A stretch of DNA of 64,000 bases from an uncultured Pelagibacteraceae bacterium (GTDB lineage Bacteria > Pseudomonadota > Alphaproteobacteria > Pelagibacterales > Pelagibacteraceae), in assembly GCA_902567435.1 (NCBI GenBank), contig CACFMU010000002.1:3990-67989 (forward strand), written 5' to 3'. Below are positions 629 to 40,213 of this stretch, piece after piece; position 1 is the first letter of the stretch; each line of letters begins with the position of its first letter. The notes beneath the pieces are model-generated. The model was not told the DNA's origin and did not search any database. It worked only from the letters and a program-made list of their open reading frames with translations. A program made the translations under genes and the position numbers.

Positions 629-2791
629 ATGCAAGAAAAATATATAAACATTAACAAATTAAAAGTTTCAGAGAGTTTATCTAGATTTGTGAAAGATGAA
701 CTATTGAAAGACGCAAATATTTCTAGTGATGATTTTTGGCTAGGTTTTAAAAAAACTGTTGAGGAGCTTGAACCAAAAAATAGACAATTAATTAATTTTA
801 GAGAAACTTTACAAAAAAAAATTAATGCATGGCATATTAAAAATAAATCTAATGAATTCAATTTAACTGAATACAAAAAATTTTTAGTTGAGATCGGCTA
901 CTTAAAAGAAGAAGGTCCAGATTTTTCTATAGACACAAAAAATGTAGACGATGAAATCACAAAAATTGCAGGACCACAATTAGTTGTACCAATTATGAAC
1001 TCACGTTATGCATTGAATGCAGCTAATGCGAGATGGATGAGTCTCTATGACAGTTTATATGGGACTGATGTTATAGAACAATCTGAGGATAGTGTTTCTG
1101 AAAGATATGACCCTTTAAGAGGAGAAATGGTTATTAAATATGGTAGAGACTTTTTAAATAAATATTTTCCTTTGAAGGATATGAGCTGGAGTAAAATTAC
1201 TACTGTAGCAGTCAAAGAAGGAAGTTTTAAAGCATTAAAAGGAGTTGAAACATTTGATTTAGTAGATGAAGAAAAATTTATTGGTCATAGAGGTGAAGCA
1301 GATAACCCATCGGCAATTATCTTGAAAAATAATAACTTACATATAGAAATTTTAAGAGATCGAAGAGCTTTTAGTGCGCAACAAGATTATGCGGGTATTA
1401 GTGATATAATATTAGAGTCTGCTATATCCACAATATGTGACAACGAAGACAGCGTTGCGGCAGTGGATGCTGCAGATAAAGTTATTTGCTACAGGAACTG
1501 GTTGGGTTTAATGAAAGGTACTCTAAAAACTCAATTTGAAAAAGGTGGTAAACTACTTGAAAGAAAATTAAATCCAAACAGAAGTTACATATCAAAAGAC
1601 GGTAAAGGGCTTAAACTTCATGGAAGAAGTCTCTTGTTGATAAGAAATGTTGGACATTTAATGACAAACCCATCAATAATTCTCAGTAATGGAAATGAAG
1701 TCCCTGAAGGTATCATGGATGCATTTATAACTGTTGCTGCTGCTCTTCATGATCTTAAAAATAAAAATAATTCTAGAACTGGATCCATCTATATAGTTAA
1801 ACCAAAAATGCATGGACCAGAGGAAACTGCATTTACTGATTTAATTTTTTCTAAAGTTGAGGAAGTTCTAGGATTAGAGAAATACACTTGTAAAATTGGA
1901 ATTATGGATGAAGAAAGAAGAACTTCATCTAATCTAAAAGAATGCATAAGAACACTCAAAAATAGAGTATTTTTTATCAATACAGGTTTTTTAGATCGAA
2001 CTGGAGATGAAATGCACACTTCGATGGAAGCAGGACCGATGATTAAAAAAGGAGAAATGAAATCTTCTAAATGGATCTTGGCATACGAAAATAATAACGT
2101 TGATGTTGGTTTGAAATGTGGACTTTCAGGTAAAGCCCAAATTGGTAAAGGAATGTGGGCGATGCCTGATAAAATGAAAGATATGATGGAGCAAAAAACA
2201 GGTCACTTAAAAGCAGGCGCAAATTGCGCTTGGGTTCCATCTCCTACTGCAGCAGCCTTACATGCGTTACACTATCATGAAATAGATATTTTTGATCAAC
2301 AAAAAAACATAATTAAAAGAGAAAAAGCAAAACTTGATGACCTTTTAACAATTCCAGTTGCAAATAGACCTAACTGGTCGATTGAAGAAATTAATAGTGA
2401 AATTTCTAACTCAGCACAAACATTGTTAGGTTATGTGGTAAGATGGATAGATCAAGGTGTAGGTTGTTCAAAAGTTCCAGATATAAATAATATTGGGCTA
2501 ATGGAAGATAGAGCAACTTTAAGAATATCTTCACAGCATATTGCTAACTGGATACATCATGGAATTACTACTAAATTACAAGTTATAGGAATAATGAAAG
2601 AGATGGCTAAAATTGTTGATGATCAAAATAAAAGTGATGATAAATATGTCAAAATGAGTGATGACTTTGACAGGTCATTAGCTTTTAAAACCGCATGTGA
2701 TTTAGTTTTCAGTGGTAAAGAGCAGCCCTCAGGATATACAGAACCTTTACTACATTTAAATAGACTTAAAAAAAAAATTAATCAGAACTAG
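629..2791 (+). CDS. glcB: Malate synthase G
   Basis: 720 aa; AGPQLVVP, NAANARW, YIVKPKMHGPEE, FINTGFLDRTGDE, LMEDRATLRISSQH. Confidence 0.97.
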   Translation: MQEKYININKLKVSESLSRFVKDELLKDANISSDDFWLGFKKTVEELEPKNRQLINFRETLQKKINAWHIKNKSNEFNLTEYKKFLVEIGYLKEEGPDFSIDTKNVDDEITKIAGPQLVVPIMNSRYALNAANARWMSLYDSLYGTDVIEQSEDSVSERYDPLRGEMVIKYGRDFLNKYFPLKDMSWSKITTVAVKEGSFKALKGVETFDLVDEEKFIGHRGEADNPSAIILKNNNLHIEILRDRRAFSAQQDYAGISDIILESAISTICDNEDSVAAVDAADKVICYRNWLGLMKGTLKTQFEKGGKLLERKLNPNRSYISKDGKGLKLHGRSLLLIRNVGHLMTNPSIILSNGNEVPEGIMDAFITVAAALHDLKNKNNSRTGSIYIVKPKMHGPEETAFTDLIFSKVEEVLGLEKYTCKIGIMDEERRTSSNLKECIRTLKNRVFFINTGFLDRTGDEMHTSMEAGPMIKKGEMKSSKWILAYENNNVDVGLKCGLSGKAQIGKGMWAMPDKMKDMMEQKTGHLKAGANCAWVPSPTAAALHALHYHEIDIFDQQKNIIKREKAKLDDLLTIPVANRPNWSIEEINSEISNSAQTLLGYVVRWIDQGVGCSKVPDINNIGLMEDRATLRISSQHIANWIHHGITTKLQVIGIMKEMAKIVDDQNKSDDKYVKMSDDFDRSLAFKTACDLVFSGKEQPSGYTEPLLHLNRLKKKINQN

Positions 2792-22663: not shown

Positions 22664-23885
22664 AGAAAAAATAGATCTTAGTTTAGATCGTATTAAAGAA
22701 CTCTGTAAAAAATTAGGTAATCCTCAAGACAAAATTAAAGCCATATCTGTGGTGGGTAGCAATGGCAAGAACAGCTCAATCAATGCAAAGTTTGCTATAT
22801 TAAAAGAAGCTAATTTCAATTGTAATGTTTACACTAGCCCTCATATTCTAAAAATAAATGAACGATTTGTATTCAATAATGAGGAATTAAGTGATGATAA
22901 GTTAGCTGATTTATTTGAAGAAATAGAAAGTTTTAATGAAAATAAACCAATTACATTCTTTGAAATATTAACAGCATCTTATTTTTATAAAGCTGCTCAG
23001 TACCCTGACAACATTAACCTTGTAGAGGCTGGCTTGTTTCACCGATTTGATGCAACTAACATACTTAAAGAAAACTTAGCTAGTGTCATATGCTCATGTT
23101 CTATTGACCACACTGACTGGCTCCCAAAAGATGAAAGAACAATTGAAAAAATTGTATTTGAAAAAACATCTACACTTTTAAATTCAAATATTATTGTAGC
23201 TAAACAAAGCACTAAAGAGACAATGGATTGTATCAAAAAAACTATTTCTCAAAATAAATCTAATAAAGTGTTTTTTAATGATGATTTTAGTTACTCTGTA
23301 AATGAAAATGGATCCTTTTATTATGAGGATAAATTTGGTGGATTAAAACTTCCAATACCTAATGTTCTTGGTCAATATCAATTAGAAAATATCTCAACAG
23401 CAATAGCAACTTTAAGAACTTTAGATATTGGCATCAAGGATGAGCATATTCAAAGAGGTGTTACTAAAATATCTAGTTTAGCAAGACTTCAGGAAATTAA
23501 GTCTGGTAAATTAAAAGAACTTGTTAAAAATAATAAATTAATAGTTGATGGAAGCCATAACGAAGGTGGAGCTAAAGCATTAAACGAATATCTTCAAAGT
23601 TTAGATTGTAATAAGCATCTAATTATTGGAATGATGTCTAACAAGCGACATGAAGAATATATTAGCTACTTAAAAGATATCTCCTCAATAACAACAATAG
23701 ACATACCCAATCAAATTAATGCTATCAAAGGTTTAGAACTAAGAGATAAATTTAAAAACCACCCTAATGTTCAATATCAAGCAAGTATAGAAGAAGCTAT
23801 TAAATCAATACCATTAAAAAAAAATGATCTTTTATTAATAACTGGTTCTTTATACCTTGCAGGTGAAGTATTAAATTTAAACTAA
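22617..23885 (+). CDS. folC: Folylpolyglutamate synthase/dihydrofolate synthase
   Basis: GSNGK, YTSPH, FFEILTA, DATN, DGSHN, TGSLYLAG. Confidence 0.94.
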   Translation: MKLQKILNRLLEKHPKEKIDLSLDRIKELCKKLGNPQDKIKAISVVGSNGKNSSINAKFAILKEANFNCNVYTSPHILKINERFVFNNEELSDDKLADLFEEIESFNENKPITFFEILTASYFYKAAQYPDNINLVEAGLFHRFDATNILKENLASVICSCSIDHTDWLPKDERTIEKIVFEKTSTLLNSNIIVAKQSTKETMDCIKKTISQNKSNKVFFNDDFSYSVNENGSFYYEDKFGGLKLPIPNVLGQYQLENISTAIATLRTLDIGIKDEHIQRGVTKISSLARLQEIKSGKLKELVKNNKLIVDGSHNEGGAKALNEYLQSLDCNKHLIIGMMSNKRHEEYISYLKDISSITTIDIPNQINAIKGLELRDKFKNHPNVQYQASIEEAIKSIPLKKNDLLLITGSLYLAGEVLNLN

Positions 23886-24199
23886 AGATTTTCGTCTAGC
23901 CACGTTTTTACATGGCCCTCTGGGGCACCACCCACCTTACGCGAAATTTCAATTCCCTTCTTATACAAAATTAATGTGGGAACGCCACGAATACCAGCAG
24001 CGGAACCTGTGTTGATCCCATTATTTTCTATATCAGCGTAATACATGTTACACTTTTCTTTGTACTCTTCTGATAACTTATCCATTATGGGCTTCAAACT
24101 TTTACATGGCCCGCACCACGCTGCCGAAAATTGTATGACTGATGCATCTTCTTGTTTAATTTTATTTTCAAAGTCTTCATCTTTAAAATCTATAAGCAT
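23882..24199 (-). CDS. trxA: Thioredoxin (atypical, GC-rich)
   Basis: WCGPC active site, GIRGVPT cis-Pro loop. Confidence 0.9.
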   Translation of the reverse strand: MLIDFKDEDFENKIKQEDASVIQFSAAWCGPCKSLKPIMDKLSEEYKEKCNMYYADIENNGINTGSAAGIRGVPTLILYKKGIEISRKVGGAPEGHVKTWLDENL

Positions 24200-24295
24200 A
24201 ATTTATCCTTTTAATCTAAATTTAAAATTTGTATCCTACGTATGTATTGATTGAAGTTCAATTTTTCAACTATTAACTTTATTTTTTTATATAAT

Positions 24296-24754
24296 TTATA
24301 ATAATTTACTTAATCTAGAAGACCTTTTTTCATTCAAAACTCTTCTAACTAATTTTCTATTACAAGGCACTCCAAGAGCTTTAGCTACTTTATCAGCTAT
24401 AGAAGATTTTGATTCTTTTTTGTTTTCAGCTTTATCAAATATTTCCAAGATTTTTTTTTCTTTATTCTTAACATTTTCTATTCCAAGAGAAGTATTATTA
24501 CTTAAAAACATAATTTTTTTAATTTCGTTGATTTTTGTCAAAGAAAGGATTTTATAAGCTGTTGGCACAGAACCTCCTGAACCCTCTCTTTTAAATTTAC
24601 ACATTTTAATATTATGATTAAAGCTAAACCTTGGTAGATTATCTTTTCTTACGGATATCTTGTTTTTTATTAAAAATTCTAAAAATCCATCAGTATCCAA
24701 ATATCCTTCAGGTATTTCTTCAAATAATTTTAAATTATAAGGATTATTTTGCAT
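24296..24754 (-). CDS. Hypothetical protein, possible C-terminal helix-turn-helix
   Basis: 152-aa ORF with GGAG RBS; SSIADKVAKALGVPCNRKLVRRVL is HTH-like. Confidence 0.6.
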   Translation of the reverse strand: MQNNPYNLKLFEEIPEGYLDTDGFLEFLIKNKISVRKDNLPRFSFNHNIKMCKFKREGSGGSVPTAYKILSLTKINEIKKIMFLSNNTSLGIENVKNKEKKILEIFDKAENKKESKSSIADKVAKALGVPCNRKLVRRVLNEKRSSRLSKLL

Positions 24755-24768
24755 ATAATCTCCGAGAA

Positions 24769-25962
24769 TTAATTTAAGTTATCTTTATCCTTGGTTAAGT
24801 TTTCCTCAAACTCTAATAATTTATCCTGCATGGGAGTTGTTTTTGGTATTGGAGTAGAAGGATTGATTCCCTGATCTTGTAGTTTTTCAATTCTTTGTTC
24901 CAAGCTAGCTTTTCCAGCCCATGCACCATTGATAACTTTTTTTAAACTTTCCCCATGACTATTAAAACTATTCATTGTTTGGATAAGGTACTTTTTTAAA
25001 ACTGAATATTTATCCATTAAGTGAGTAGCAGTGTCTGTAATTTCCTTCACACCATTGATTTGTTTTTCTTTGTCTTTAATAGTTTGAACAATAGAGATTA
25101 TTGCTAAAAGGTTTTTAGGTCCTACTAGTAATATGTTTTTTTTATAAGCATATTCATAAAGATCTGGAAAATGTTCTAAAGCTGCTAAGTAAGCAGCTTC
25201 ATGGCACATATACATTATTACTTTTTCAAAAACATCTTTCTTTAAATTTTTCATATAATCTTTTTTCGATAGATCATCGATATGTTTTCTAACAGCTAAA
25301 GCATGTTTTTTAAATTGCTCATCTTTTTCTTGATCATCTGTTGCCATTACAAATTTTTTCCAATTATCTAATGAAACTTTTGAGTCACATATAATATGAT
25401 TTCCATCAGCTAAATTTATTACTATGTCTGGCTTAACTGTTTGCGTGGTATCATCTTCTATATTCAAAACTTCTTCTTTCTTTTGTTTGGTATAATCAAT
25501 ACCCAACTTAAAACCATGAAACTGCAAGGATTGTTCTAGAAATTTTTCACCAAAATCTCCTTGATATTTTGAATTTCCCGTAAGTTTGTCAATAAATGTT
25601 TGTTGATCTTTAATCATTTTAGAATGTTCTGTCATATTAGTAGTCAGCACAGTTTTAAATTCATCAACTTTTCCTAAGCTTTTAAGCTGCTCAGCGCTAG
25701 TTGCTCTTTCAGTTTTTAAACTATCTTCAACATTGCTTTTAAGCTCCTCAAGACTATTAATTTTTTCTTTTAATAAATCAGCCTCTGAATTCTTTTCAGC
25801 TTCCAATAATTCCATTTGATGTTTTTGATTTTTTAACTCTTCATCTTTTAATCTTAAGTTTTCAATTTCTTCAGAGTTATCTTTTTTTTGAAAAAACTTA
25901 ATATAAGCTAACCATAGAATTGATGTTATTGCTGCTGTTACTAATATTGTAATTAAATTCAT
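24769..25962 (-). CDS. rmuC: DNA recombination protein RmuC family
   Basis: N-terminal TM, coiled coil, GDFGE..LE, KPDIVINL..IICDSKVSL, HIDDLSKKDY. Confidence 0.88.
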   Translation of the reverse strand: MNLITILVTAAITSILWLAYIKFFQKKDNSEEIENLRLKDEELKNQKHQMELLEAEKNSEADLLKEKINSLEELKSNVEDSLKTERATSAEQLKSLGKVDEFKTVLTTNMTEHSKMIKDQQTFIDKLTGNSKYQGDFGEKFLEQSLQFHGFKLGIDYTKQKKEEVLNIEDDTTQTVKPDIVINLADGNHIICDSKVSLDNWKKFVMATDDQEKDEQFKKHALAVRKHIDDLSKKDYMKNLKKDVFEKVIMYMCHEAAYLAALEHFPDLYEYAYKKNILLVGPKNLLAIISIVQTIKDKEKQINGVKEITDTATHLMDKYSVLKKYLIQTMNSFNSHGESLKKVINGAWAGKASLEQRIEKLQDQGINPSTPIPKTTPMQDKLLEFEENLTKDKDNLN

Positions 25963-25974
25963 TAATTGATTCCT

Positions 25975-26349
25975 TTATTGTATTGTATTGTTTGCTGCAT
26001 CTAATTTCAACTCAGGTGCATTTTCATTTAAATATTCAGACATATTCTTTGTAACTTCATCAGTAGATGTTTCATTTACATGTTTAAATAAATTGTAAGA
26101 GACATTTAATATTGCTCTTTGTTTTATGTGATAAAGAAAATGATAATAGGTAAAATCAGTATTCATTCTACATTCTTTAACAAATTCATCGATTTCATCA
26201 CATATTTTTCTAGCAAATTTATTAGTTCTTTCACGCTCCTGGTCTTCTATAGATAACAACTGGGTAGCATTTTCTGCCTCTACTATATTTTTATTAATAG
26301 GAATAACGTTTGTTGTTTTTTTTTTACTATTCTTTTTAATTTTTGGCAT
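25975..26349 (-). CDS. Hypothetical protein
   Basis: AGGAG RBS before ATG 26349 (MPKIKK); overlaps the end of the upstream ORF. Confidence 0.65.
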   Translation of the reverse strand: MPKIKKNSKKKTTNVIPINKNIVEAENATQLLSIEDQERERTNKFARKICDEIDEFVKECRMNTDFTYYHFLYHIKQRAILNVSYNLFKHVNETSTDEVTKNMSEYLNENAPELKLDAANNTIQ

Positions 26350-26650
26350 TTTTTCTCCTATATTTGATTTGTGGCACCTCATATTTATTAAGCTCTTCTT
26401 TTAAAACCTCAATTTCACTAAGGGCCTTGTGATATTGAGAGTGTTCTCTGATCTTTTGAAAAAAATTAAGTGTTATAATGGGTAGGTAAATTAAACTATA
26501 GATTGTAAATATAAGCTTATTATCTCGAAACCTTCTTTTTTTTGCTTCAGCAATTAAACCTCTAAACTTTAAGTAATTCTTTTGATCATTTGCCCAGTTT
26601 TCTCGATGAGTAAGGCAATCTTTTAAAACATAATAATATTTATCTTTCAT
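26336..26650 (-). CDS. Hypothetical protein with one hydrophobic segment
   Basis: AAAGGAG RBS; LIFTIYSLIYLPIITLNFF segment. Confidence 0.65.
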   Translation of the reverse strand: MKDKYYYVLKDCLTHRENWANDQKNYLKFRGLIAEAKKRRFRDNKLIFTIYSLIYLPIITLNFFQKIREHSQYHKALSEIEVLKEELNKYEVPQIKYRRKNAKN

Positions 26651-26664
26651 GATGCTCCTTTAAG

Positions 26665-26817
26665 ATATTGAAGCTCAGATTCTCACAACAGAAAGGATTG
26701 AGATAAAAAAAATGAGAACCTGAGTTTTCAATATATGATTTTGAAATATTTAAGCTTAAGCACTTCCAACAGAAAGCAGAAAGAAAGGAATGAAGTAAAC
26801 TTAAGTGTTCAATATTT
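26665..26817 (-). ncRNA. Putative structured leader/sRNA: two tandem hairpins with conserved stem base and CUUUCUGUUG loop
   Basis: Inverted repeats 26665-26685/26713-26734 and 26744-26766/26792-26817; both loops share CAACAGAAAG on +. Confidence 0.65.
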
Positions 26818-26832
26818 TTTATCATTGAGAAC

Positions 26833-26861
26833 AATATATATAATAAAATTACTGTTGTCAA
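26833..26861 (-). promoter_or_regulatory. Leftward sigma70 promoter
   Basis: TTGACA (26861-26856)-17 bp-TATATT (26838-26833). Confidence 0.7.
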
Positions 26862-26867
26862 CAGTAA
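26849..26867. promoter_or_regulatory. Palindromic operator candidate
   Basis: Perfect TTACTGTTG-T-CAACAGTAA covering the -35 of the leftward promoter. Confidence 0.65.
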
Positions 26868-26876
26868 AAATATCTA

Positions 26877-26905
26877 TTTACAAATAAATTTTACTTCTAT
26901 ATAAA
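26877..26905 (+). promoter_or_regulatory. Rightward promoter for the repressor gene
   Basis: TTTACA-17 bp-TATAAA. Confidence 0.5.
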
Positions 26906-26934
26906 GTACTATATATAAAGAATCAACAAATCCA

Positions 26935-28041
26935 ATGAATACAATTATTAACGAAAAAAACCGAGAATTGCTTCTAAAAGTACTAAAGTTATCAAATTTA
27001 ACTAAAGCTCAATGTAGCTACTTGTTAGGAAAGCATCAAAAATCACTAGATACCTATATTTATAAATACTCAGACATAAATTTTCCACCAAGTTTTGCTT
27101 TTTTCTTTCTTAGTTCAGTTGCAACTTCTCAAACTTCCTTTTGGGATAAGTCCCAAAAAATAAGCAAGTTTAACTATTTTAAAAAATTAGATCATGTAGA
27201 TAACCACGAGTTTTATAAGTTACTAAACAATTGTGAGGATTTGGAAATAGTTAAAAAATTAATCATGCCATGCCTAGAACACCATTGTATGCTCTTAATT
27301 AGATTGTCAAATTCACAATTTGTTCATGATGCAGATTATTTTGAAGAAGAATACATTAATCTAGCAATGCCAGGAATAAGAGAGTCTATTGAAGAGTATG
27401 AAGATTATAAAAATGGGATTGAAGATGGATCGAGAGTTAGTCCTAATGAAGCTTTAAAAAATATTCAAAACCAAAAATTATTAGAATCTATAAAAAATTT
27501 TTTTCTTCACGCAGAAATTTTAAGAAAACATTATATGGAAAACTTTGTTGCACCCCATGAGACTTTCAAACTACCTGTTTTAAATTCAAACGAAAAAATT
27601 TTGTTTTCAAAAGATTTTATAAAAAGAAATTTAAATATAAAAAAATATGATGATTTAGTTTTAATGAATGTAGACGAAGATAATATGCAAGGAACATTTA
27701 ATAAAAATGATATTGCATTAATAGTGAAATTTAAAAATAATATACTGCCACAAAAATATGAAGATGGTATTTATGCACTAAATATAAATGAAAAAATTTC
27801 TGTTAGAAGGCTGCAATTTTTAAAACTACCTAAGAGAACTTTGGTTACAATTATTTCAGATAATAAGAATTATAGTGATCAAAACGTTGCTCTGGAAGAT
27901 CTGAATATATTTGGTGAAGTTGTTTGGAAATGTAATAGTTTTAAAGATATAAAATTTGAAAAATATATTGATAACACACCCGATTTATTTTCAGAGGAAA
28001 AAACAACAATTAACAAAATTTTAGAGAAGGAAACTGCATAA
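26935..28041 (+). CDS. CI/LexA-like regulator: N-terminal HTH-like region plus C-terminal S24-fold domain lacking catalytic residues
   Basis: LTKAQCSYLLG HTH-like; VDEDNMQGTF..D..LIV...DGIYAL...VRRLQ...IISDNKNY...IFGEVVW. Confidence 0.75.
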   Translation: MNTIINEKNRELLLKVLKLSNLTKAQCSYLLGKHQKSLDTYIYKYSDINFPPSFAFFFLSSVATSQTSFWDKSQKISKFNYFKKLDHVDNHEFYKLLNNCEDLEIVKKLIMPCLEHHCMLLIRLSNSQFVHDADYFEEEYINLAMPGIRESIEEYEDYKNGIEDGSRVSPNEALKNIQNQKLLESIKNFFLHAEILRKHYMENFVAPHETFKLPVLNSNEKILFSKDFIKRNLNIKKYDDLVLMNVDEDNMQGTFNKNDIALIVKFKNNILPQKYEDGIYALNINEKISVRRLQFLKLPKRTLVTIISDNKNYSDQNVALEDLNIFGEVVWKCNSFKDIKFEKYIDNTPDLFSEEKTTINKILEKETA

Positions 28042-28042
28042 G

Positions 28043-29488
28043 ATGGATTATAATTATATATTTTTTGACTGTGAAACAAACAGTGGAAGATCACATGCTG
28101 ATATTTTAACTATTTCAGCATTATTTGTTGATAAAAATTTTAAATTAATTGAGGAATTTAATTGTGCAGCTCGTCTTAGAAAATCTAGAATATATGAGAT
28201 AGATAGTTTCTTAGTAAATGGAATGGATCCTTTCGAAGTTGATAAACACCCCTTCTCTAATTTTGATTTAACGAAAAAAACTAATGATAAATTTATCTCT
28301 TGGATAAATAAAGGGCCTGTATTGTTTTGTGCGCACAACGGATACCAATTCGATTATATGCTAACATCTACGCACCTTTTTACCAATCTCTTTACATGGC
28401 CTTGGATATTTTCAACAGGAAATGCCAAACAAATAGATTCTTTACCAATTCTACAAAATTTTGATTTTTATTCTCCAAATACAATTGCAATCGAATTAAA
28501 TGAAAAATCTAATAAAACTTTTAAATTAAGTAGTTTATGTCGGATGAATGGTTTTGACCTTGGAGATAAAGCTCATACAGCAGAGGCAGATACTTTGGGA
28601 ATGAATAAACTAATGGAATTAGTGAGTAAAAAGAATCCAGAGTTATTTAAAAAATGTATTAGTCTTAATGATAAGAAAAATGTTTTATCAAGAATAAAAG
28701 ATGTTGATTATTTTTGTCACCCTGAAACATTTTTCGGTCGAACTAGACAATTTACTTCAAGTTATCTTTGTGAACATCCAGTATACAAAGGTTATCATTT
28801 AGTTTTTGATTTAAAGCATGATCCTGAGGCAATGTTTTCAGAAAAATCTAATACAGTTTTAAAAAAAATTCTTAACGGTGCTCCAAAAAAATACAGAACT
28901 ATAAAAGCTAATAAAAATCCTTTTATTCAAGATAAATCATGGGCTACAAAATTTGGTGATGAGTATACAACGCTTGGACATGAAATATTAGAACAGAGAG
29001 CAAACTTTGTAGTTGAAAATAGAGATGAGCTTGCTAACAGAGTTAGCTTAATTATTAGTGATCAATTTGAAAGTCAGAATTTAGATCAAACAGAATTACT
29101 TCCTGAACAAATGATTTTTACATTAAATCCTTCTCCATCAGATAAATCATTGATGAATCATTTTGTGATGACAAACTCTATGGATGAGCAGAAAAAAATT
29201 CACAAAAGTTTCAAAGGTCCTATTAAACATTTATCTGAAATGATACTGCTTGATAGATTTGGAGAAGAACCTTTTACAAAAGCTGAATATACAAGAATTA
29301 GAAAAGGTATAAGCAGAAGATTGCTCTCAACCAACAAAGAAGCTTTTCCAACTATTCCTGATGGAATGGCGCGTATTGATCAGCTTAGAGTTGAAAAAAA
29401 AGATGAACCTGAGCAATTAAAAATTATTGAAAATATAAATAAACATTTAGAGATGACTGCATCTGAACATGAAAAATATTTAAAATAA
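28043..29488 (+). CDS. sbcB: Exodeoxyribonuclease I-like DEDDh 3'-5' exonuclease
   Basis: FFDCET, AHNGYQFD, FKLSSL..NG....AHTAEADT; ExoI-sized (481 aa). Confidence 0.8.
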   Translation: MDYNYIFFDCETNSGRSHADILTISALFVDKNFKLIEEFNCAARLRKSRIYEIDSFLVNGMDPFEVDKHPFSNFDLTKKTNDKFISWINKGPVLFCAHNGYQFDYMLTSTHLFTNLFTWPWIFSTGNAKQIDSLPILQNFDFYSPNTIAIELNEKSNKTFKLSSLCRMNGFDLGDKAHTAEADTLGMNKLMELVSKKNPELFKKCISLNDKKNVLSRIKDVDYFCHPETFFGRTRQFTSSYLCEHPVYKGYHLVFDLKHDPEAMFSEKSNTVLKKILNGAPKKYRTIKANKNPFIQDKSWATKFGDEYTTLGHEILEQRANFVVENRDELANRVSLIISDQFESQNLDQTELLPEQMIFTLNPSPSDKSLMNHFVMTNSMDEQKKIHKSFKGPIKHLSEMILLDRFGEEPFTKAEYTRIRKGISRRLLSTNKEAFPTIPDGMARIDQLRVEKKDEPEQLKIIENINKHLEMTASEHEKYLK

Positions 29489-29489
29489 T

Positions 29490-29687
29490 ATGGCTTTTGT
29501 TAAATCAGAAAAAATAGAAATTGAAATCCAAAAACAAGTAATGGCTGATGCAGGATGTAAATATATGGTACTAGTTAAATCTGAAAATAATAATCAAAAT
29601 AAACTTAAAATTTTAACTACTGATGTTGAGCCTATAGTTAGGTTTTCTGAAGATAATGGTCGTATTGTAGTTGTTAAAAAGAATTAG
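29490..29687 (+). CDS. Small hypothetical protein
   Basis: 65 aa, starts 1 nt after the ExoI stop. Confidence 0.6.
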   Translation: MAFVKSEKIEIEIQKQVMADAGCKYMVLVKSENNNQNKLKILTTDVEPIVRFSEDNGRIVVVKKN

Positions 29688-30382
29688 CTATTATTTTTTA
29701 ATTCATAATAGGCATCTACTCTTCTCATCGCTTCATCTTTTAAATGCTCAAATTCTTGGCCTTCTATTTTAAATTTTTGAAAAAGTAAATTTGGAGTGCA
29801 CATCAAAATAACTCCCGTTTTAATACTAGTTCCATATACTTTATCGTGTGCCATTGCATATAGACAAAGTTGGAGGAAGTATTCGTTTACAGAAGACCAT
29901 TCACGTTGCTTTGGCTTATTACTTTGTTTCCAGTCTCCCACAGCCATCTTTGAGTCAAAATTAATAATTCCATCAGCAGTTCCTGCATATAAATTTGGAT
30001 AATGTAACACTACCTCACATCCATAGACCTCATCGACATGATCATTAATGCCATTTTTTACTATAGTTTCGGCCATTTTTTTTGGTAAATTAACCTCTTC
30101 AATCAACTCACCGTTCATACGACCTAACAATATTGCCTCGACATAGGAGTGCATATTTGTGCCACGATCACTTGATTGCTTTGCTATAGCTGTAGCATTT
30201 GCTAAACCAACATCTTTTTTCCATTTACTTAATGCATCTTTATCTTTTTGACTTTTAGTCAATGAAAGTATGGTAGTCACGCTTGGTAATTTTTCACCTT
30301 CTACCTCATAATGTCTAGATCCATTATAGATAGATCTCATTGATTTAGGGTAGGCAAACTTATTAATGATTTTCCAAGGCAT
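29684..30382 (-). CDS. Phage-type PD-(D/E)XK exonuclease (Cas4/RecB-like)
   Basis: LPSVTTIL, RGTNMH, YAGTAD, DWKQS, QL..Y. Confidence 0.85.
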   Translation of the reverse strand: MPWKIINKFAYPKSMRSIYNGSRHYEVEGEKLPSVTTILSLTKSQKDKDALSKWKKDVGLANATAIAKQSSDRGTNMHSYVEAILLGRMNGELIEEVNLPKKMAETIVKNGINDHVDEVYGCEVVLHYPNLYAGTADGIINFDSKMAVGDWKQSNKPKQREWSSVNEYFLQLCLYAMAHDKVYGTSIKTGVILMCTPNLLFQKFKIEGQEFEHLKDEAMRRVDAYYELKNNS

Positions 30383-39537: not shown

Positions 39538-39612
39538 TGGTACCCGGGCTGAGAATCGAACTCAAACTTAAAGTTCCACAAACTTTCGTGCTAACCGTTA
39601 CACCACCCAGGC
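39538..39612 (-). tRNA. tRNA-His(GUG)
   Basis: GCCTGGG...AAAGT-TTGTGGA-ACTTT...TTCGATT...CCCGGGT-A-CCA. Confidence 0.95.
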
Positions 39613-40138: not shown

Positions 40139-40213
40139 TGGTGCCTCGGGAAGGATTCGCACCTCCGACACAAGCCTTTTCAGGGCTCTGCTCTACTCCT
40201 GAGCTACCGAGGC
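40139..40213 (-). tRNA. tRNA-Phe(GAA)
   Basis: GCCTCGG-TAGCTCAG...GAGCC-CTGAAAA-GGCTT...CCGAGGC-A-CCA. Confidence 0.93.

Follow-up and report, generated by a model that had tools for sequence, protein, structure and literature searches.

Two adjacent hairpins on the minus strand of a marine genome fragment carry loops that resemble the 3' end of 16S rRNA, and they lie between a repressor-type regulator and the operon that it faces. Their presence raises the question of what an RNA element of this kind does at such a site. The DNA analyzed, referred to below as the window, is a 64,000-nt stretch of an uncultured Pelagibacteraceae bacterium (assembly GCA_902567435.1, contig CACFMU010000002.1, positions 3,990 to 67,989 of the forward strand). 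A first-pass annotation had described two hairpins at 26665-26817 (-) and had read them as tandem RNA units with paired upper stems, possibly processed into guide RNAs. Inspection of the letters bore out this description, and unit B folded as drawn (-22.6 kcal/mol, z = -5.75, equalled by 0 of 200 shuffles). Unit A, in contrast, was weak in the window genome (-9.6 kcal/mol, z = -0.83), and its score with our covariance model was also lower than that of unit B (Table 1). The structure was thus strong in unit B, and the stems covary among relatives (see below), but it is weak in unit A of this genome.

Table 1. Positions of the leader, its control elements and the flanking genes in the window.
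Feature	Position	Strand	Description
Likely operator palindrome, perfect, 17 bp	26850..26866		TACTGTTG-T-CAACAGTA; covers the -35 box
Sigma-70-type promoter	26833..26861	-	TTGACA-17-TATATT; 11/12 consensus matches
uORF, 61 codons + stop	26640..26825	-	AUG 26825-26823; UAA 26642-26640
Hairpin unit A (weak here)	26746..26817	-	Loop 26767-26791 with UCCUUUCU and CUUUCU; 47.2 bits
Hairpin unit B (strong)	26665..26734	-	Loop 26686-26712 with UCCUUUCU; 79.9 bits
First-gene Shine-Dalgarno sequence	26655..26661	-	AAAGGAG; complementary to the loop motif
First gene (small104), 104 aa	26336..26650	-	One hydrophobic segment; AUG at 26650
S24-peptidase-domain (CI/LexA-like) regulator, 368 aa	26935..28041	+	Divergent from the leader; ExoI-like gene next

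The promoter reported just upstream of the hairpins was recovered at the expected place (Table 1), and its layout is repeated in all related leaders. The 17-bp palindrome is likely the operator of the divergently encoded S24-type repressor; its sequence varies clade by clade, in step with the repressor. The host genome also encodes a separate LexA of its own. On the divergent side, the S24 regulator is followed by an exonuclease-I-like protein (ExoI) and a 65-aa ORF, whereas on the leader side small104, whose AUG lies 14 nt downstream of the 3' base of unit B, is followed by an ORF of 124 or 135 aa (orf124), RmuC, a 152-aa ORF, and thioredoxin. For the second ORF, the most likely start is an internal Met at 26349 (-), behind UAGGAGAAAAA, which gives 124 aa; the alternative is an upstream ATG at 26382 (135 aa), and it is the SD-led start that relatives conserve. 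Neither the small104 nor the orf124 protein had a match in Pfam, NCBIfam, or PADLOC, and look-ups of the 104-aa and 124-aa proteins in the ESM-Atlas returned nothing beyond their own clusters. PADLOC models of reverse-transcriptase accessory proteins matched RmuC and ExoI, but the reverse transcriptase itself is absent, and an assignment to such a system was rejected. Short clade-specific palindromes were noticed within the first 10-12 nt past the predicted +1 (TGTTTAAACA; AATGTTAACATT; TTAATATTAA); they could represent a second operator or A/T-rich chance sequences.

The check for covariation in homologues was run with a covariance model trained on 13 units, with which 61 loci were searched. 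It retrieved 62 hairpin occurrences (45 of them distinct) in 60 sources, namely, Pelagibacteraceae genomes and marine metagenomes, all on the mRNA-sense strand. In the resulting alignment, 93.8% of the 755 cells were paired, and compensatory changes were observed at 13 of the 17 pairs, including all 11 pairs of the upper helix; 113 cells were changed on both sides, although the source genomes are related to one another and these counts overstate independence. None of 500 shuffles matched any of the covariation measures, and pairing fell to only 25-52% in a control in which the partner was slid by 1-3 columns. Because the covariance alignment had been fitted to the model, RNAalifold was run independently on 20 whole leaders in a plain MAFFT alignment; it returned the same helix, with compensatory changes at 11 of 14 pairs. 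In these aligned leaders, it predicted no conserved outer helix between the 5' end and the initiation region. The hairpins measure 56-82 nt across loci, with stems of 17-27 bp, and their base is separated by 13-16 nt from the first-gene AUG in most clades. The SD sits 2-8 nt beyond the hairpin in most clades, and the L034 clade alone has a stem that reaches to 6 nt from the AUG.

The hairpin was kept, with covariation, in every related locus that retains the upstream DNA, and for this reason the feature is, by these alignments, far beyond chance. The search of Rfam yielded no family at gathering score, and at E values up to 10 it returned just chance matches of at most 19 bits. Elsewhere in the window, Rfam gathering scores were reached by a glycine riboswitch aptamer (459-548, +) and by two tRNA genes (39541-39612 and 40142-40213, -). 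Judged by its strong covariation and the lack of an Rfam match, the element is a well-supported new structured RNA. An intrinsic terminator or transcription attenuator was considered and rejected: a scan of 26550-27000 gave no terminator-like sites, and the loops, of 21-32 nt, are not followed by a U run.

The strand that folds could also be determined. G-U pairs occupied 103 cells, as compared to 15 cells for A-C, and reading the alignment on the opposite strand lowered pairing to 82%. The model scored 80 bits on the minus strand versus 24 bits on the plus strand, and across loci the plus-strand scores did not exceed 25 bits, versus up to 83 bits. The excess of G-U over A-C and the strand-biased scores therefore indicate that the folded strand is single-stranded and mRNA-sense; by the same counts, the element is neither a DNA palindrome nor a plus-strand RNA. 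This asymmetry bears on the idea that the site acts as DNA, either as a cruciform or by offering extra repressor half-sites (CAACAG). Such an idea draws on CAACAGAAA, which is present in both window loops and matches the operator half-site, but the 103 G-U cells become A-C mismatches on the other strand. Moreover, CTGTTG in the loop does not track the operator: the loci L029, L030, L032, and L034 share the operator and lack CTGTTG, whereas L062, with another operator, has it. The half-site candidate was rejected on these grounds, and we regard a DNA-level element of any kind as extremely improbable.

To which extent the tandem arrangement is general was apparent from the distribution of the element. 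Scans of one-genome-per-species contigs and of metagenomes returned 11 and 51 loci, respectively, all of them marine, and 10 of the 11 genome loci carried a Pelagibacteraceae label. All loci share a cassette with RmuC-orf124-small104 on one side of the leader and, divergently, S24-ExoI(-orf65) on the other. There is one hairpin locus per genome, always with the same promoter/operator on one side and the first cassette gene on the other. With the covariance model, the element was found in 5 of 151 genomes of the genus, a survey whose strict search filters lose weak matches, as illustrated by genome G008, which has the element yet was missed. An order-level sample of 150 genomes added one further genome, of the same genus, and a class-level sample of 150 genomes gave no hairpin match. 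The S24 protein was rare, being found in 3 of 61 relatives, and a search of viral contigs with the repressor protein as query detected no relative. Two units are present solely in the clade of the window; every other clade has a single unit, and there are never more than two. The tandem arrangement thus holds for the window itself but is a one-clade trait. A DNA search of the window's own genome detected no further hairpin copies. The longer arrays with variable loops that had been anticipated were not encountered in any of these loci: most carry only one unit, and it is the loops that stay constant. Since there is one locus per genome with mostly one unit, the element is, on this distribution, not an arrayed or dispersed sRNA family.

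The leader appears to travel with its repressor. Between the window and the loci L033 and L042, the small104, RmuC, and ExoI proteins are 96-100% identical, whereas the S24 proteins share only 53% identity, and nucleotide similarity is lost over 26698-27042, a segment that comprises the 5' part of the hairpin, the promoter, the operator, and the N-terminus of the repressor. The combination of near-identical cassette proteins with a divergent switch therefore indicates that the switch, including the leader, was exchanged as a module; repressor N-terminus, operator, and leader appear to have been swapped together, as far as these alignments tell. In this exchange between near-identical cassettes, the site is much like the immunity region of a phage, and the exchange suggests selection for diversity at the repressor/leader switch. 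The cassettes of L042, L039, and L033 have a different operator (GACTTTACAAAAAAGTC), the 53%-identical S24 regulator, and a single long hairpin. The clade of L051, L056, and L057 has a gene for a 535-aa protein inserted between leader and small104 (664-2271, -, in L057); the protein contains a HELAH (HExxH-like) motif and has no Pfam or PADLOC match.

The leaders have a second common property, which is a new observation here: each of them holds an upstream open reading frame (uORF). A leader AUG (uAUG) is located about 12-15 nt before the hairpin in every leader, and AUGUU is invariant in the 20 aligned leaders. It lies 6-8 nt past the -10 box in all clades (8th nt in the window). The uORF is probably leaderless, because its AUG falls where transcription should begin. 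Metatranscriptome-library contigs from two studies cover both hairpins, at 26655-26805 and 26562-26810, with 1 mismatch each; they provide weak evidence that the leader is transcribed, given that DNA may be carried over into RNA libraries and that the ends, gaps, and stopping points of contigs are uninterpretable, and neither of them enters the promoter. While the spacing from the -10 box points to a uAUG near the 5' end, these contigs stop 15-20 nt before they would reach the predicted start. In genome G000, -10-like hexamers preceded the first ATG of long ORFs by 5-6 nt in 22 cases, versus about 9 at neighboring offsets; this faint enrichment suggests that a few percent of its genes may be leaderless.

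The frame set by the uAUG contained no premature stop in 40 of 40 distinct leaders, whereas the other two frames contained 99 and 135 stops. It stays open through the hairpin, or through both hairpins in the window, and has a length of 27-47 codons with one unit and of 61 codons with two. In every clade it closes at the start of the next gene: relative to the first-gene AUG, the uORF stop was at -7, -6, -2, +1 (AUGA), or +8. The stop may be the UGA of an AUGA or the UAA of a UAAUG; it may fall 8 nt within the first gene, as does the UAA of the window; or it may be a UAA 6 nt upstream. The latter applies to L034, the only clade in which uAUG and main AUG are in phase; because this UAA closes the frame 6 nt before the main AUG, no leader fuses the uORF with the first gene. 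In L051, L056, and L057, the uORF stops at -7 or +8 of the AUG of the inserted 535-aa gene. An AUG at the predicted +1, an in-frame hairpin, and a stop on the next AUG together indicate a ribosome-operated leader. As far as can be judged from this layout, a hairpin enclosed in an open frame that closes on the next AUG speaks for a cis-acting leader rather than for processed guide RNAs.

A frame that is open in all clades could also signify that the uORF encodes a functional small peptide rich in F, L, S, and P, with the hairpin being secondary, and C/U-rich codons do yield hydrophobic F/L/S/P stretches in any frame. However, the peptides, of 27 to 61 aa, have almost nothing in common past their first 6 residues, and clades differ in the frame in which the CCUUUCU motif is read, with all three frames represented. 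Selection therefore acts on the RNA and on the openness of the frame and not on the peptide. The stems, moreover, covary in a manner that preserves pairing while residues change, and a peptide function is accordingly very unlikely in our view. A loop made only of pyrimidines has neither stop nor start codons in any frame; avoidance of such codons could by itself favor C/U richness but not an exact motif.

What the loops display is indeed an exact motif. The 16S rRNA gene of the window genome ends in ...GGAUUACCUCCUUUCU, and the loop motif therefore equals its last 8-9 nt. The octamer UCCUUUCU, the last 8 nt of the gene, was present in 42 of the 45 distinct loops, and the 9-mer CUCCUUUCU of the tail was present in 21 of them; 39 of the 45 distinct units had two or more copies of CUUUCU. 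The loops are about 77% pyrimidine and predicted to be single-stranded. Both loops of the window finish with CUUUCUGUUG. The proposed resemblance to the 16S 3' end consequently stands for (C)UCCUUUCU, which is conserved, but not for the terminal CUGUUG, which is confined to the window's own clade and is independent of operator type. In the 829-kb assembly, the heptamer CCTTTCT is present only 56 times, both strands counted. The 16S rRNA was scanned for the complement of the loop motif, and AGAAAGG was absent. At about 1320-1345 (-) of L062, upper stem and loop read GGAUCACC-AC-UCCUUUCU, near the full 16S 3' terminus GGAUYACCUCCUUUCU; this resemblance may be due to chance.

The use of SD sequences differs between host and cassette. 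Host genes were rarely SD-led, as had been expected: the fraction amounted to 13-17% of 661 long ORFs, a figure that relies on a first-ATG rule and is no better than an internal control. SD use was higher in pelagiphages, at 42-52% of the annotated genes of HTVC010P and HTVC008M, and it still reached 36-44% when the host ORF rule was applied to these two phages. The suggestion that the genes of the operon itself are SD-led was likewise borne out, since nearly all cassette genes have a strong and conserved SD. In the island at 23882-30382, an SD of -6 kcal/mol or better was observed for small104, orf124, RmuC, orf152, trxA, ExoI, and a PD-(D/E)XK ORF; almost all island genes reach this value, as compared to about 11% of the long ORFs of the genome.

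These figures are the basis on which the hairpins might act in trans: once induced, the leader hairpins, possibly cut by RNase III, would cover the AGAAAGGA-type ribosome-binding sites (RBSs) of phage or island genes. Identity of the loop motif with the 16S 3' end, low SD use in the host against higher use in HTVC010P and HTVC008M, and the strong conserved SDs of the downstream cassette genes all agree with this, and stems of 17-27 bp are possible RNase III substrates. Guide RNAs would nevertheless be expected in another form than the one found. There are 1-2 units at a single locus per genome, and stand-alone copies, arrays, and variable loops are absent from the loci and genomes searched; the units are enclosed by a conserved open frame that closes at the next start codon, something of which a free sRNA has no need; and no Hfq turned up in 4 genomes, of which three are at least 92% complete. 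A transcript with its one or two hairpins would, furthermore, have to rival ribosomes for many mRNAs. We therefore consider action in trans unlikely. A related proposal, that the leader mimics the 16S tail so that after derepression its UCCUUUCU loops compete with ribosomes for SDs, in cis or, after processing, in trans, is in our estimation distinctly unlikely as well. If it were true, SD-dependent phage or island mRNAs would be selectively throttled in an SD-poor host, which would constitute a layer of defence or self-control at translation initiation.

Pairing within the same mRNA was assessed for the individual clades. In many of them, the SD is a possible partner of the 3' loop motif, as codons 2-3 (GAAAGA) are of the 5' motif, and in L050 loop and initiation region are nearly continuously complementary (-16.2 kcal/mol). 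For 9 of 15 scored clade representatives, the pairing of the loop with its own initiation region ranked in the best 11% of host initiation regions. When duplex energies of loop and initiation region were compared to shuffled targets, the z-scores were mostly unremarkable, because purine-rich targets remain purine-rich on shuffling. About one-third of the clades (L012, L032, L033, L034, and L052) have no SD before the first gene and retain the loop motif; in these, pairing of the loop with its own initiation region is no stronger than with average host genes. Masking of the downstream RBS thus fits about two-thirds of the clades, as predicted from these complementarities, and since the motif is kept in the SD-less clades, masking is not the sole conserved role of the loops. 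No clear covariation of SD variant with loop variant was seen, UCUCC loops being present in clades with and without a GGAGA SD. Judged by geometry, an SD at 2-8 nt from the base of a 17-27-bp stem would hardly come into contact with the loop before the A-U basal stem had opened.

The reading that we favor, to which we assign about an even chance of being correct, is that of a cis-acting structured 5' leader of small104-orf124-RmuC, gated by termination-reinitiation at the uORF together with loop pairing in the same mRNA. The S24-type repressor would hold the operon off through the palindromic operator over the -35 box. Upon derepression, the transcript would start at or beside the uAUG and hence be leaderless, and a ribosome bound to the 5'-terminal AUG would translate the uORF and thereby unwind the hairpin. 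This ribosome would terminate on the start of the first gene and could then reinitiate. As ribosomes would have to end on the first-gene start, translation of this gene would depend on that of the leader, and production of a first, possibly harmful, protein would be gated in this manner. The most likely role of the loops would be to pair with the purine-rich SD and AUGAAAGA of the same mRNA and to bar independent 30S entry until a translating ribosome strips the pairing. The SD-less first genes of about one-third of the clades are consistent with a reliance on reinitiation.

The principal challenge to this gate comes from the constancy of the loops. Their motif is kept with or without an SD or AUGAAAGA, and also before a different first gene, so a constant trans factor would fit better than a variable cis partner. 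The C/U-rich loops might accordingly be a landing site for Rho, which favors YC-rich, G-poor RNA, for S1, or for a protein that normally recognizes the 16S tail, with translation of the uORF controlling access; in the Rho version, this could amount to translation-dependent premature termination, as in tna- or mgtA-type leaders. Rho is encoded in 4 of 4 genomes checked, single-stranded pyrimidine-rich loops of this length would suit such a factor, and a uORF over a rut-like site is a classical layout. Known rut sites, on the other hand, span about 60-80 nt and are unstructured, whereas here the C/U tract lies in a loop closed by a very stable stem; the exact 8- to 9-nt motif is more specific than Rho or S1 require, and no candidate binding protein was identified. 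We judge a factor-binding site to be rather unlikely; a constant loop partner, which could be Rho, S1, or the SDs of the second and third genes, both strong and conserved, nonetheless constitutes a serious rival to the translational gate.

The gate has counterparts, in parts, among known systems. In Escherichia coli, uORFs with a 5'-terminal uAUG are bound by 70S ribosomes and can influence the cistron that follows (PMC4965119). In those of the ptrB type (Beck et al. 2016, PMC4965119), as here, an AUG at the predicted 5' end opens a short ORF before a leadered gene, and an effect on the next cistron has been proposed; the uORF described here differs in that a conserved and covarying hairpin, which displays the 16S-tail motif, lies within it and in that it always closes on the following start codon, and its transcription start is a predicted one. 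The lambda cI transcript from PRM, a classic leaderless mRNA, likewise belongs to a repressor/operator switch region. Termination-reinitiation systems (AUGA/UAAUG; coat-lysis and coat-replicase of RNA phages) are alike in having an upstream stop within a few nucleotides of the downstream AUG, in that some of the downstream genes have no SD, and in that upstream structure is opened by the translating ribosome. They are unlike the present case, in which the upstream frame is an unconserved leader peptide and any masking is exerted by a hairpin loop and not by a long-range stem. The attenuators of ermC, cat-86, and cmlA also have a short leader ORF that overlaps a hairpin just before the regulated gene; here, by contrast, the SD is outside the hairpin in most clades, so that there is no sequestration by a 3' arm, no stalling peptide is conserved, and the leader ORF crosses the entire hairpin to the next AUG.

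Among RNAs with anti-SD loops, the cuckoo/CcsR (RSs0680) sRNAs form 2-4 adjacent hairpins of 24-50 nt, each with CCUCCUCCC in its loop (PMC4615179); they are co-transcribed downstream of a small gene, occur in several neighborhoods per genome, and are bound by Hfq (PMC4615179). They resemble the present element in their variable stems, in a constant anti-SD-like pyrimidine loop, and in their presence in Alphaproteobacteria. The present element differs by its 1-2 hairpins of 56-82 nt, by (C)UCCUUUCU, by its single locus, by its location at the 5' end of an mRNA and inside an ORF, and by its occurrence in genomes without detectable hfq. As motif, size, copy number, and position all differ, and as there is no Rfam match, membership in this family was rejected. 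A type III toxin-antitoxin (ToxI-like) repeat was also discarded, because there are just 1-2 units and the downstream proteins match no endoribonuclease-toxin family. The immunity RNAs of phages P1 (c4) and P4 (CI) are processed, untranslated, and specific to each immunity type. The leader is like them an operon-leader RNA in an immunity-like switch, with loops complementary to downstream RBSs, but its loops are constant across immunity types and it forms an open frame. By analogy, the element looks like a leaderless uORF, termination-reinitiation coupling, and an anti-SD mask combined. Full-text literature searches retrieved no description of such a combination or of a translated leader with a loop that equals the 16S tail.

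SAR11 bacteria have very few transcription factors and are thought to rely heavily on control at the RNA level, and few RNA elements have been described in them. The leader adds an unusual design: a probably leaderless uORF that runs through a hairpin showing a copy of the anti-SD tail and closes exactly at the following start codon. Should the gate operate in the proposed manner, an operon with a toxic-looking membrane protein and an RmuC nuclease would be double-locked, by a repressor and by translation of the leader. It would then also offer a tractable case for the interplay of leaderless initiation, SD use, and the anti-SD tail in a host that is mostly SD-free.
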